Shown here: positions 13,799 through 26,586 of the stretch, piece after piece | How the letters are laid out: every line of letters begins with the position of its first letter | Position numbering within the stretch: position 1 is the first letter of the stretch | Virus record (IMG/VR): IMGVR_UViG_3300012943_000004 | Coordinates: 13,829 to 77,828 of that record | Length of the DNA: 64,000 bases | Strand: one strand, 5' to 3' | From: a virus | Lineage: Duplodnaviria > Caudoviricetes | Translations under genes and position numbers: made by a program | The notes under the pieces: model-generated | The model's database searches: none | Told to the model about the DNA's origin: nothing | The model's input: the letters and a program-made list of their open reading frames with translations, nothing else

Positions 13799-14544
13799 TC
13801 AATGCGGCCTTGATCCGCCTCTGCCCATCCTTGCGTTCCTCTTTGACTCCTCTGCCTTGCGCTGCTTTTCATCTTCAGCGGCACGTTCCATAAGAACGTA
13901 ATATGCCTTCTCTACGAAATCAGGATGCTGATCATAGAGTCCACCGGCTGCAGGAAGATGTCTCCAGCTAGTTAAGTCACAGAGAGTAAATATTCTAAAG
14001 AACGGATGAGGTCTACCTGGGATTTCTTTTCCGCGAACAAAGAGATCTACTTGTTCGCGGAACCAGATTCCCCCGCTTCTCGGTCAATCGCCTGCTGAAG
14101 GAGGTCTTGGAGCTCTTCGATCTGCTCTCGAATCATATCGGCTGTCATGTCACCCTGAATCCAGGGGTTCGCCTTACGAATCGCCATCTCCAACTTTTCG
14201 ACCAGAGCGACCGGGGCCGTCTCGAGCCACTTGCGAAGCATCTGTTTACTGAACAGAATCGCCTCGCCGCCCTTATAAAGATTCCAGCCAGTAACGCTGG
14301 TCTCAATAAGTGCGTGACGCTCCTTGCCTGGGTCCATCTTGATTTGCGAGTTACCGCCTCGAGTCATTGTAACGTCGACGCGGTTCTTACTCTGATACTC
14401 GGTCTTCTGGCCTTCATTCATCACCTGAATGATGAAGTACTGCTTTCCGTCAGGAAGCATATGCTTTGCGGTCTCGTCTGTGCCCCAATAGTCCACGTAC
14501 TCGACTACAACTTCATCCTGCAGCAAGCCTGGTGCTTCAGTCAT
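13799..14544 (-). CDS. Tail assembly chaperone, long form made by a -1 programmed frameshift
   Basis: After GGGGGAA the -1 frame reads GIWFREQVDLFVRGKEIPGRPHPFFRIFTLCDLTSWRHLPAAGGLYDQHPDFVEKAYYVL... to TGA at 13801-13799; LP..GG..DQ is typical of these extensions. Confidence 0.85.
14029..14074 (-). other. -1 ribosomal frameshift signal (slippery heptamer plus 12-bp hairpin)
   Basis: G GGG GAA at 14074-14068, a 5-nt spacer, then stem UUCCGCGAACAA/UUGUUCGCGGAA (14062-14029). Confidence 0.85.
14047..14544 (-). CDS. Tail assembly chaperone, short form
   Basis: 165 aa between the tail tube and tape measure genes. Confidence 0.85.
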   Translation of the reverse strand: MTEAPGLLQDEVVVEYVDYWGTDETAKHMLPDGKQYFIIQVMNEGQKTEYQSKNRVDVTMTRGGNSQIKMDPGKERHALIETSVTGWNLYKGGEAILFSKQMLRKWLETAPVALVEKLEMAIRKANPWIQGDMTADMIREQIEELQDLLQQAIDREAGESGSANK

Positions 14545-23210: not shown

Positions 23211-25105
23211 CGTCTATTACCTCTTCCTGGTAGAAGTCGAGCCGGTAGTGGAAACACAATGCTTTGAGAGCCGTCATTAATCGAAGATGGAGGGCGCGGT
23301 GCGTGCATGCCCGGCATACCAAGATCTGGCAATCGAGGATCTCCAGTACCGTATCCGTCTGTACCTGTGCCGAGCATTTCTTTCTCTACTCGTGCCTTAT
23401 CCATAGAGATTACATTACGGCGGAAGCTCCTGTCACCCATCAGGGTGAACACAACCCCAGCCATAGAATCCGCGACGTCTTTACTACCCTGTGCCGGGTG
23501 GTCGACCTTGTTGTCCTTCTGCTCAAGTGCATACAATTCACGCTTTGCTATCTCAACTAACTCGCCGTCACCCTGGCGAATATAAGTCATATATGGAGGC
23601 ATTTCTACTCTGTCCTCATAGAACGCCTCTCGGAGATCCTCATAAGGAAGCATAGACTTATCAATCGATACATAGTCAACTGCGAATCTACGCTTTGCTA
23701 ACTGCTGCATCGTGTCGGTACTCTGAAAGCCATCCATCGTGACCATACGAATTCTGAACCCATAATGATCCTTGAGCTCGTAAATAATTCGCCGCACGTC
23801 CTGAATCATAATCTCAGTGCCGGGCGCCGCGTGAATACGCATCAGGAAATCAAAGACAATATATGGCTTCTTGTCTCCGTCAACCTCTACGACATGACTA
23901 ACGTGTCCCATTGATAAGCCGAGAGAGTCTCCATCAGCTGAATATGCAAGATCAATATGGACAGCTCTCTTAAGTGGAGTTTTGCATGTAAACCAAGATT
24001 CAAACTTTGGACGACTGACTCCTGTATCTACAGGAGATCCAAGGTTATCATAGCGCTCGTTCCAGCGCTCAACGGCCTGGTCGATCTTGTAAGTAAGACT
24101 GATAAACGGATCGCCAGCCGCAGGCGGAATGCCGGCCAGATCACGAAGCGCCTTCTCGGGACTATTTTCGAAGTTACTTCGATACGCTTCTGGAACCTCG
24201 ATTATCTGACTTACGTCGTTAATCAGCAAAGCGGCATCGGTAGGAATAATCTGCTTACGCTTGATACTATACCAGAAAGAAAGTCGCTTCCCCCTGGCGT
24301 CCGAGAATCTCTTCCAGCCGAGCGAATCCCAAAGCGTCATTCTGACTGTATGGGCGTCAGGATCCTTCTCGAACTCGGCAAGCTTTCGAGCTGCGAAACC
24401 AGACGCTTTTTTCATCTGCCCAACTACCAGAAGGAATCCTCTGTCTTGGAATCGTGAATCAATACGAGTATAGATCGTATTGTATCCATCCTCCGCGTAG
24501 TCCTTCTCTTCTGTGACCTTGTGCGAATCGGCCTCGTCTAGAATGCCGCCCAGGATGTTATAACCCTCGAAGGTAGTTTCCTTGCTATTTCCCGGCAGAA
24601 CCCAAATATCCTTCTCGAATCGAAGTTGCTTAGTGAACTTCGGATCGAAGGGGTAGTTATTTGCAAACCATTCACAATGCTCAATTCGAGCTTTGATATC
24701 ACCGAATACGGTTTCGACCGCCTGGTCGGACGTTGTGCTCATCTGCATAAACGCAATACGCGCGCCGGGAAGAAGATCGTAATAATCCTGCGGATCCTTC
24801 AGGCATAGAATCCAGTGCGTCATATAAGGTATGACCACACTCGCCATTGTGGTCTTTCCGATTCCAATAGCGCCTGTGAACATAGCCTTACGATAGCGCG
24901 CAATTCGCGCATTGTTTACATTCTCGCCAAATATCTCAACGAGTTCCGCCACGACGCCGGGACGCATCTTCGACATGATGTTGCAGTAGCCTGGGCCGAG
25001 AAACTCTTTTACACTCGCAGGCTTCTCGTGAAAGTGCGGATTCCTCTGGAGCCAACGAAGTTGCGCTGCAGCCTTCTTAGCGTCCCATCCCGGCGAAGGC
25101 GTCAT
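23207..25105 (-). CDS. terL: Terminase large subunit
   Basis: Walker A GAIGIGKTT, Walker B ILDEAD, nuclease HIDLA / DGFQS / KDVADS. Confidence 0.93.
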   Translation of the reverse strand: MTPSPGWDAKKAAAQLRWLQRNPHFHEKPASVKEFLGPGYCNIMSKMRPGVVAELVEIFGENVNNARIARYRKAMFTGAIGIGKTTMASVVIPYMTHWILCLKDPQDYYDLLPGARIAFMQMSTTSDQAVETVFGDIKARIEHCEWFANNYPFDPKFTKQLRFEKDIWVLPGNSKETTFEGYNILGGILDEADSHKVTEEKDYAEDGYNTIYTRIDSRFQDRGFLLVVGQMKKASGFAARKLAEFEKDPDAHTVRMTLWDSLGWKRFSDARGKRLSFWYSIKRKQIIPTDAALLINDVSQIIEVPEAYRSNFENSPEKALRDLAGIPPAAGDPFISLTYKIDQAVERWNERYDNLGSPVDTGVSRPKFESWFTCKTPLKRAVHIDLAYSADGDSLGLSMGHVSHVVEVDGDKKPYIVFDFLMRIHAAPGTEIMIQDVRRIIYELKDHYGFRIRMVTMDGFQSTDTMQQLAKRRFAVDYVSIDKSMLPYEDLREAFYEDRVEMPPYMTYIRQGDGELVEIAKRELYALEQKDNKVDHPAQGSKDVADSMAGVVFTLMGDRSFRRNVISMDKARVEKEMLGTGTDGYGTGDPRLPDLGMPGMHAPRPPSSINDGSQSIVFPLPARLLPGRGNRR

Positions 25106-26532
25106 TAGTCAACCAGCTCTCCGGTGACAACTTCGGATTTAGAGAACTCCTCCATCTTGGCTTCGATCATTTGAGGAGTGATCTTAGCTCGAGGGATTCC
25201 GTCGGCCTCGTATTGAGAAATAACCTGAGAAACAAACTGATTAGGCGTGATCGCAGTGATCGCAGCTGCGGCCCCATTAGTATTAACTCCAATTGCAATC
25301 TTTGCGCCACCGCGCAGGTTGGGATCAAGTAGCTTAGCAAGCTGAACACCTTCAGTAAAGATCGTACTAAGCATCTTTGTCACTTCAGGATCAGTTTCGC
25401 CAAACTCCTCTTCATCCTCAATAGCACGTTCAGCGCGCTCGACCTGAACCCCAATGATAGCTCCTAAGCCATCGATAATCTTTGAACTATCGCGTGATTT
25501 GAATGCTGTAATAAGCTTTGATGTTTCGGCTCCCGGCACGCTACATACGCTCCCTACTCTGAAGTAATTACAAGTGAGATTGATAGAACAGGTGTCACAC
25601 AAAAACTTGTCTCCCTGTTCTGCGCGCCCCGTACTTGATCTATAAGATTTCGACAAGGCAGGCTTTCGCTGTACGTCTAACTGATGCTGAAGTGAGTCGT
25701 AAGGACCGCGTGTTCTAAACTTAAGGTTCTCATGCCAGTGTTCGCCCGCCCACTGAGCTGACTTGATGTTATACATGCATCGATTCCGTGGAATCTTAAG
25801 ATCTACTACCTGAAAACCTAAAAGGTGGATCCATGCCTGACAATGAGAAGTTCTTTCCCAAAACATAACCTTCCCAGGAGGGAGAATAACCTTGCCCTTC
25901 TGTGCATCCCAACGCGGATCAATATCAGCTGCCGCGAAGCCTAGTCCGAAAGCAATTCGCCAGCTATATGTTCCATGCAGATGAATTATGCAGTTTGGAT
26001 TCTCCTCCTGCATGATAGCTAATTCTTTAAGGAATTGCTTTCCCTGCATCGTCTGTGACGGAGGCCACTCCGTTACGATAACTCTATGCTCTTGGCCTAA
26101 TACTGGAGTTTCGTCGATAGCGGTTCCGTTTAGCTTTGCATCACAAGATTGCGGATCCTCCCCCACGGGAAACTCAATCATTTCTCTCAGGAGCTCAATT
26201 GGCTCACCGAATGTCCAGGTTGGATAAACAGCTTTTGGATTAGTCAGATCGTGATCCTGATCCAATTCTGCTGTACCCTGATCTCCTACCAAGAGAAGCC
26301 GGAAAGGATTAATTTCTCCAAAGTAGAGCTTTGCATGAACGAATGGCTCGATCCGCCTCTTGGTAAGCGCTCCGCGATCCCAAGAAACCGTATTGCCTCC
26401 GGCCTCTACGAGCTCCTTGATATAGGAGTGTGGGTTTCTATACCATACTTCTGTCACAATAAAGTCCAATCGGATCACTGATCTATATCGCGTTACGCGC
26501 GCGTATAGGTCCAAACTATACACCGCTAGCAA
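25105..26532 (-). CDS. Candidate terminase small subunit fused to a TGT-like domain and a Cys4 motif (real start possibly GTG at 26457)
   Basis: TAATG coupling to terL; HLHG...AADIDPRWDAQKG resembles the TGT C-terminal motif; CDTC...C...C; helical C-terminus. Confidence 0.5.
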   Translation of the reverse strand: MLAVYSLDLYARVTRYRSVIRLDFIVTEVWYRNPHSYIKELVEAGGNTVSWDRGALTKRRIEPFVHAKLYFGEINPFRLLLVGDQGTAELDQDHDLTNPKAVYPTWTFGEPIELLREMIEFPVGEDPQSCDAKLNGTAIDETPVLGQEHRVIVTEWPPSQTMQGKQFLKELAIMQEENPNCIIHLHGTYSWRIAFGLGFAAADIDPRWDAQKGKVILPPGKVMFWERTSHCQAWIHLLGFQVVDLKIPRNRCMYNIKSAQWAGEHWHENLKFRTRGPYDSLQHQLDVQRKPALSKSYRSSTGRAEQGDKFLCDTCSINLTCNYFRVGSVCSVPGAETSKLITAFKSRDSSKIIDGLGAIIGVQVERAERAIEDEEEFGETDPEVTKMLSTIFTEGVQLAKLLDPNLRGGAKIAIGVNTNGAAAAITAITPNQFVSQVISQYEADGIPRAKITPQMIEAKMEEFSKSEVVTGELVD

Positions 26533-26549
26533 AGGTAGTCAACCCCAGC

Positions 26550-26586
26550 AAGAAACGCCCCCTCGCCGCAGAGGAGGCGTTTCTTT
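26550..26586. terminator. Bidirectional terminator-like hairpin
   Basis: AAGAAACGCC-CCTC / GAGG-AGGCGTTTCTT with T-rich runs on both strands. Confidence 0.65.

Follow-up and report, generated by a model that had tools for sequence, protein, structure and literature searches.

A candidate small-terminase equivalent with a DpdA-like, probably inactive TIM barrel encoded beside terL in a caudovirus genome

The 64,000 nt stretch of DNA analysed here (the window) covers positions 13,829 to 77,828 of the IMG/VR virus record IMGVR_UViG_3300012943_000004 (Caudoviricetes), which is 77,828 bp long, has terminal repeats and was judged complete. On the minus strand of the window, directly upstream of terL, the gene for the large terminase subunit TerL, lies a gene encoding a 450 aa protein. 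Our preferred explanation, which we hold with a probability of about 0.6, is that this gene is its lineage's equivalent of the small terminase subunit (TerS), built on a largely inactivated barrel derived from DpdA, the DNA guanine transglycosylase of phages. Recognition of viral DNA by small terminases is attributed to helix-turn-helix domains; here the barrel would stand in for the usual N-terminal helix-turn-helix as a DNA-binding pseudoenzyme module, and a four-cysteine (Cys4) knuckle may brace it, much as a zinc subdomain does in tRNA-guanine transglycosylase (TGT). A long helical hairpin could drive oligomerisation, and a two-helix tail, lying past a flexible linker, is predicted from a controlled in silico interface to dock on the N-terminus of TerL, which the protein would partner in initiating packaging.

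An AlphaFold2 model was computed from a 110-sequence alignment of the family, to which all conservation figures below also refer. It has a predicted local distance difference test (pLDDT) score of 90.8 and a predicted template modelling score of 0.82, and divides the protein into the segments listed in Table 1; residue numbers refer throughout to the 450 aa protein. A TGT fold had been proposed for this gene in an original prediction made from the DNA sequence alone, and the model agrees, giving a TIM barrel over approximately the 243 N-terminal residues, the nearest solved and predicted neighbours of which are TGT, archaeosine TGT (ArcTGT) and DpdA. TGT structures fill all of the top 40 places in a Foldseek search of the PDB, the first neighbours outside the family in a fold search of BFVD are phage queuine tRNA-ribosyltransferases, and TGT-family matches lead in two independent methods and two libraries. 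The structural alignments with TGT-family proteins also run about 40 residues longer, reaching residues 299-332 in the Cys region, whereas those with generic barrels end at residue 243.

Sequence profiles connect the second half of the barrel to DpdA. Alignment of the family profile, using hhalign, with that of 15 diverse phage DpdAs (from 9g, BcepGomr, ZHS, Bipper, Dp-1, Qyrzula, phiFN37, PenguinLover67, Baskent_P4_1, Yong-L2-223 and vB_VibM_83AMN, plus four metagenomic sequences) gave a probability of 94.9% and a P value of 4.1e-8 over 139 columns, against P values of 0.22-0.71 for controls consisting of a reversed template and five column-shuffled templates. With 11 DpdA sequences the probability was 87.7% (P 3.4e-6), whilst a shallow profile containing only 9g DpdA matched the correct region but not significantly (P 0.028), diverse DpdAs being needed for significance. 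The register was identical in all three comparisons: VYPTW falls on PLPCF of 9g DpdA, H161-G162 on H196-G197, AAD178 on CD215, and R226/N230 on R284/N288. This is the segment holding the motif region HLHG...AAD.DPR...NRCMYN on which the original prediction had drawn, and D178 indeed lies opposite the DpdA nucleophile. When the DpdA alignment was forced into the N-terminal half of the barrel it carried no confidence there, and it was not used for residue mapping in that part.

Other searches were negative. The Pfam TGT family (PF01702) gave no match even at E below 1; phmmer and the 110-sequence profile returned only noise from all PDB sequences (E 0.037 or worse); an ESM Atlas feature search with residues 1-312 scored 0.76 at best, no better than noise; and phage sequences queried by tblastn with E. 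coli TGT yielded true tgt genes only and no DpdA. Taken from the profile alignments and the fold searches, the best reading is that the barrel descends from phage DpdA. A genomic analogy makes such an origin plausible: in the mycobacteriophages Bipper, Qyrzula, PenguinLover67 and CRB2, a genuine dpdA together with genes for QueC/D/E and FolE lies directly upstream of terL, at the left end of the genome. The same slot in these four phages (L051:977-6342, L053:1-6014, L061 and L062) often also holds a ParB-like nuclease or DNA-binding gene, and no TerS is annotated there.

TGT and DpdA have three invariant active-site aspartates, which in the DpdA of S. Montevideo (Sm) are the general acid/base D95, the base-recognising D130 and the nucleophile D256; the base is also contacted by H181, and either D95A or D256A abolishes guanine exchange (PMC10164549). 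D178, conserved in 91% of sequences, is the sole survivor of this catalytic set in the protein described here. The histidine at the base edge (Sm H181; H141 in the PLPxFHxGE motif of 9g DpdA) aligns to T82, in a variable column where S, E and D are commonest. Equivalents of D95 and D130 would have to lie in residues 1-74, where no Asp or Glu column reaches 80%, and the topological position of D95 (in the DSGAFS motif) after beta3 is occupied by G58, in a column that is 70% Gly. The word 'degenerate' used of the barrel in the original prediction was therefore apt, two of the three invariant catalytic aspartates and the base-reading histidine being without a conserved counterpart.

Erosion has gone further in some relatives. 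In Gordonia phage Monty, AADIDP has become ASCLDP, with Cys at 178, HLHG is FIKP and RCMYN is GLLYC; D178, HxHG and RxxxN are gone from the Monty clade, yet its Cys knuckle and C-terminal module keep all of their conserved residues. Across the family, the only columns conserved in 100% of sequences are D283, C287, C290, C296, C305 and G420, followed by G195, E349 and P379 (99%), P79 and R341 (98%) and R300 (96%). The enzymes that would accompany a working DpdA are also missing. Whilst the original prediction had noted that no Que or FolE genes are visible in the window, the search now extends to the other 13.8 kb, and TGT, QueC, FolE and QueD were not found anywhere in the genome; QueC and FolE were likewise not found in four relatives that are 92-100% complete or in Monty, and a Streptomyces assembly holding a relative contains no TGT and only a spurious partial QueC-like match. 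The barrel is most likely a pseudoenzyme that has lost transglycosylase activity, because the nucleophile alone is kept, the Monty clade has changed at these motifs, the invariant columns lie mostly outside the barrel and there is no substrate supply. For the suggestion that the protein modifies DNA, one of the options raised originally, the loss of catalytic residues and the absent preQ0 pathway are unfavourable. The other option, that it reads guanine to select genomes for packaging, is speculative.

Following the barrel is a cluster with the pattern D283-x3-C287-x2-C290-x5-C296-x3-R300-x4-C305. The pLDDT of this region is 92-96 in the full model but only 42-57 in a model of the C-terminal 179 residues that lacks the barrel; because confidence collapses in this way, the Cys region is best regarded as a subdomain supported by the barrel, perhaps comparable to the zinc subdomain of TGT. 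A weak match to phrog_887, annotated as queuine tRNA-ribosyltransferase, also covers it (E 0.045). The zinc motif of the original prediction corresponds to an invariant cluster behaving as part of the barrel, but its spacing, C-x2-C-x5-C-x8-C, differs from the CxCxxC...H of TGT, zinc binding is presumed, and phage DpdAs have no such Cys cluster.

The C-terminal module consists of a candidate oligomerisation core and the terminal helices. In the hairpin region R322, R341, E349 and P379 are 94-99% conserved, and its fold search matches generic helical hairpins only; in the terminal helices T427 and I426 are conserved at 94% and 90%, respectively, alongside the invariant G420. Complexes were predicted between residues 313-450 (40-row alignment) and TerL (31-row alignment), in three runs with three controls. 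The interface score ipSAE was 0.61 for tail and TerL against 0.01 for the best control, the mark applied to this score being reached by 58 of 80 solved complexes and two of 110 mismatched pairs; contact agreement was at least 49% and partner pLDDT at least 62. Residues ~401-435 of the tail are placed against TerL residues 7-40 and 145-150, bringing G420 and the conserved R423, I426 and T427 to the conserved L19, P23, P29, A30, E34 and Y40 of TerL. Binding of the two C-terminal helices to the N-terminus of TerL is accordingly a prediction of the complex model. A resemblance of this tail to TerS, as claimed originally, was not supported: neither in fold nor in sequence is the C-terminal module significantly similar to canonical TerS proteins, and the connection to packaging comes instead from synteny and the predicted TerL interface. 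All significant BFVD matches to the module are family members, a T4-type gp16 and a putative Vibrio TerS appearing only at E values of 0.73 and 1.3. A search for stand-alone short homologues of residues 306-450 returned a single 109 aa protein, probably a fragment.

The genomic association with terL is consistent. The order family gene, TerL, portal is found in 43 of 43 related viral loci, in which TerL is 50-67% identical and a divergent primase usually lies upstream. Stop and start codons of the family gene and terL overlap in about half of these loci, as they do in the window, where the TAATG coupling previously pointed out is present in the junction gacTAATGacg, the TAA stop and the ATG of terL having one base in common. 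The remaining loci have gaps of 50-1,580 bp containing unrelated, non-conserved insertions. This insertion hotspot (loci L005-L037) has received an HNH endonuclease (L009), SNase-like nucleases (L007, L008), membrane proteins of 85-120 aa (L010, L015, L017, L019, L020, L037), Cys-rich ORFs (open reading frames) of 100-130 aa (L006, L011) and tiny Zn-ribbon ORFs. A separate canonical TerS, which the original prediction had advised looking for in the rest of the genome, was not found, the four Pfam TerS families having no match there. Nothing above chance was seen in a search for pac-like repeats or motif arrays around the gene; GGTTGTTG had 43 matches against 37.5 expected.

No part of the protein is detectably homologous to a canonical TerS, the protein is two to three times as long as a typical TerS, and many small ORFs of this genome are unannotated. 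It could on these grounds be a TerL-binding accessory with a role in packaging specificity, anti-defence or regulation, the true TerS being an unrecognised small protein elsewhere in the genome. We regard this as unlikely: the place directly upstream of terL is kept at every one of the 43 loci with no conserved small gene between or beside, the Pfam TerS families are absent from the genome, and the predicted interface reproduces the classic arrangement of TerS C-terminus to TerL N-terminus, which is known from lambda Nu1-gpA. Alternatively, the barrel could be an active DpdA-like transglycosylase or glycosylase, modifying or cutting DNA whilst tethered to the terminase, with D178 as the nucleophile and some other general acid (e.g. 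E64, H124, H159 or H161); its targets would be guanines, either at the site where packaging begins or while the DNA passes into the capsid. D178 is highly conserved in the nucleophile register, H159, H161, G162, R226 and N230 are 75-94% conserved, the link between DpdA and packaging genes has a precedent in the four mycobacteriophages named above, and the predicted docking would put the barrel at the motor. Against these stand the two aspartates and the histidine without conserved counterparts, the Monty clade, which has Cys at 178 and still keeps the gene in the same place, the lack of preQ0 pathway genes in six genomes of the group, a likely Streptomyces host without TGT or a real QueC, and the silence of the Pfam TGT model, which together render an active enzyme unlikely. 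A related idea is that the pocket of the relic barrel still flips guanine, or damaged or modified guanine, from duplex DNA, with D178 engaging the sugar; recognition through base flipping, or even a covalent or abasic intermediate formed at the start site, might then control the initiation of packaging. This we rate as unlikely, although if true it would be a way of choosing or cutting DNA for encapsidation unlike that of any known terminase.

It is very improbable that the likeness to TGT and DpdA is only generic TIM-barrel similarity, with the barrel being of unrelated origin, such as a sugar-phosphate enzyme, given the significance of the DpdA alignment with its clean controls, a register that fits the HG, D and RxxxN motifs, and TGT-family matches that head both methods and both libraries and extend into the Cys region. 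The reading of the gene as a TerS equivalent on a DpdA-derived pseudoenzyme nonetheless has several points against it. The analysis is wholly computational, and all function is inferred. A profile of five canonical bacterial TGTs gave an hhalign P value of 0.12 in the wrong register; this want of signal makes the barrel closer in sequence to phage DpdA than to the tRNA enzymes. Loss of the general-acid aspartate is argued from the lack of a conserved acid and not from superposition, the N-terminal half being unalignable residue by residue, and some activity may remain, since this clade still conserves D178, H161, R226 and N230 at 75-94%. The 'terminase small subunit' label is carried by the family in PHROGs and RefSeq, most of the original GenBank records reading 'hypothetical protein', and appears to be annotation by position. 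TerS proteins are diverse, and failure to find a second one does not prove its absence. Finally, the complex score is the model's own confidence, obtained with our own alignments as input.

Phage DpdAs, such as gp03 of Enterobacteria phage 9g and gp3 of Mycobacterium phage Bipper, are like this protein in being phage-encoded, in their (beta/alpha)8 fold and profile homology from beta5 to alpha8, and in the motifs P-x-(W/F), HG, nucleophile Asp and R-x3-N; those of actinophages are also found just upstream of terL. They are unlike it in that this protein is without the conserved general-acid Asp, the base-recognition Asp and His and the accompanying FolE/QueCDE genes, and adds the Cys4 knuckle and a helical C-terminal module of 140 aa. 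With the TGTs (bacterial 1q2r and 1p0b; archaeosine TGT 1iq8) and the non-catalytic QTRT2 (6fv5) it has no sequence-level signal in common, and the Cys pattern, the presumed substrate (double-stranded DNA as opposed to tRNA) and the context (packaging as opposed to translation) are different. Canonical TerS proteins, for example lambda Nu1, P22 gp3, SPP1 G1P, Sf6 gp1, G20C TerS (4xvn) and T4 gp16, form ring oligomers of 8-12 subunits and bind specifically to pac or cos DNA. The protein matches them in its position and translational coupling to terL, in a central antiparallel hairpin of helices such as those from which TerS rings are built and in a C-terminal segment predicted to bind the TerL N-terminus; unlike them, it has a TIM barrel at the N-terminus instead of a helix-turn-helix domain, is much larger, and shows no significant similarity in sequence or fold. 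Monty gp8 (phrog_6902), ReqiDocB7 gp001 with gp002 and, farther off, phrog_16015 (the 'TerS' of Gordonia phage Jumbo) share the family, the architecture and the order primase, gene, TerL, portal. These records are only 28-33% identical, include the Monty clade with its lost barrel motifs, and have a positional label with no fold assignment.

The gene is conserved in relatives and is not a chance ORF, as judged from the 526 relatives found at E<=1e-3 in one database and the 376 clusters at 50% identity in another. A full-length match to the phrog_6902 hidden Markov model (E 1.9e-73) joins residues 28-475 of the longer ORF discussed below to profile positions 11-463 of 469, and a further match, to phrog_16015, covers the C-terminal 190 residues; scanning the protein against Pfam and NCBIfam produced no relevant hit. 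Nearly all of the relatives are 430-500 aa long, and many are on contigs of ~77 kb. Those from cultured phages, at 28-33% identity, belong to Monty-type Gordonia phages, Rhodococcus phage ReqiDocB7 and Tsukamurella phages, and are surrounded by a divergent helicase/primase, the terminase and a Mu-like portal. In ReqiDocB7 (NC_023706), gp001 and gp002, both annotated as 'terminase small subunit', are one family gene split by a frameshift (L001:1030-1100), its Cys4 motif (CNECSLWNSCTYYREGNMC) spanning the annotated gap in another frame; the cause is a sequencing error or else a shift that is real or programmed. An 80,560 bp contig (L056), the size of a phage genome, in the isolate assembly of Streptomyces sp. 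NPDC127100 carries a 40% identical relative, an indication that the hosts are Actinomycetota; the contig probably comes from a phage of this group that was sequenced along with the isolate. A second match is on a 22.9 kb contig binned as Thioalkalivibrio (L055). BFVD entries A0A8S5QQE4 (722 aa), A0A6J5L5L3 (482 aa) and A0A6J7XEC0 (539 aa), larger uncharacterised proteins of uncultured Caudovirales, match barrel and tail alike, and from these the architecture probably extends past actinophages.

A full-text literature search, within the limits of the searchable library, found no TIM barrel, TGT or DpdA fold described in a terminase subunit, and terminases and Gordonia phages both go unmentioned in a survey of the DpdA subfamilies (PMC10516641). 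As far as that library shows, what is new is the assignment of the fold, the degeneration of the catalytic set and the predicted interface with TerL, whilst the 'terminase small subunit' label was already known. If the TerS-equivalent reading is true, a widespread lineage of about 376 clusters at 50% identity, including cultured phages of Gordonia, Rhodococcus and Tsukamurella, has swapped the helix-turn-helix for the barrel of a hypermodification enzyme, which would be a new way of recognising DNA for packaging and would clearly illustrate how an enzyme can turn into a pseudoenzyme within a virus. Annotation would be affected as well: the presence of DpdA has been put forward as a marker of 7-deazaguanine DNA (PMC10516641), and here a relative of DpdA would give no grounds to expect that modification. 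The cultured relatives make binding, oligomeric state, guanine exchange and the composition of virion DNA directly testable.

The extent of the gene is smaller than first proposed. The strings quoted in the original prediction (IIHLHGTYSWRIAFGLGFAAADIDPRWDAQKGKVILPPG, MYNIKS and CDTCSINLTCNYFRVGSVC) and the acidic helical stretch are all present in the translation of the minus strand ORF at 25105..26532, which encodes 475 aa if read from the TTG at 26532. Whilst the ORF and its TAA stop (25105-25107) stand as given, translation almost certainly starts at the GTG at 26457 (coding sequence 25108..26457), because the gene call in the public database is 450 aa, homologues begin 1-3 residues ahead of the conserved TEVW(F/Y)RNP, and the TTG falls within the spacer of a sigma70-like promoter.

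Table 1. Positions of the gene, its predicted segments and neighbouring features in the window
Feature	Positions	Strand	Basis or remark
Whole gene, 450 aa plus TAA stop	25105..26457	minus	phrog_6902 member, labelled 'terminase small subunit'
(beta/alpha)8 TIM barrel, TGT/DpdA superfamily, residues 1-243	25729..26457	minus	AlphaFold2 and fold searches
DpdA-homologous segment, residues 75-246 (beta5 to alpha8, second barrel half)	25720..26235	minus	hhalign
D178 codon	25924..25926	minus	Aligned with nucleophile Asp: 9g DpdA D215, S. Montevideo DpdA D256 (Zm TGT D280)
Variable linker, residues 244-282	25612..25728	minus	pLDDT 56-77 over 251-270; poorly conserved
Cys4 knuckle, residues 283-312 (cluster 283-305)	25522..25611	minus	Presumed Zn-binding
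Short helix and long antiparallel helical hairpin (324-352, 357-377), residues 313-379	25321..25521	minus	Candidate oligomerisation core
Gly/Ala-rich flexible linker, residues 380-404	25246..25320	minus	pLDDT <50 at 390-401
Two terminal helices (405-441), residues 405-450	25108..25245	minus	Predicted to bind TerL N-terminus
terL, 632 aa	23207..25105	minus	Translationally coupled to upstream gene
Predicted docking site, TerL residues 7-40	24986-25087	minus	Complex prediction
Sigma70-like promoter, TTGACT-16-TATAGT	26515..26542	minus	10/12 consensus matches; consensus match only; overlaps TTG of longer ORF

Structural genes lie leftward of the gene and replication genes (AEP primase, primase-helicase) rightward. 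The TerL of one relative (L013, 10342-13251) has approximately 300 extra residues directly after the Walker A motif GIGK, which looks like an intein or another in-frame insertion. In the window itself, the divergent intergenic region between the gene and the primase contains, at 26550-26585, a GC-rich inverted repeat with 15 nt arms and a 6 nt loop, flanked by runs of T and A, the form of which could be that of a bidirectional terminator-like or operator-like element.

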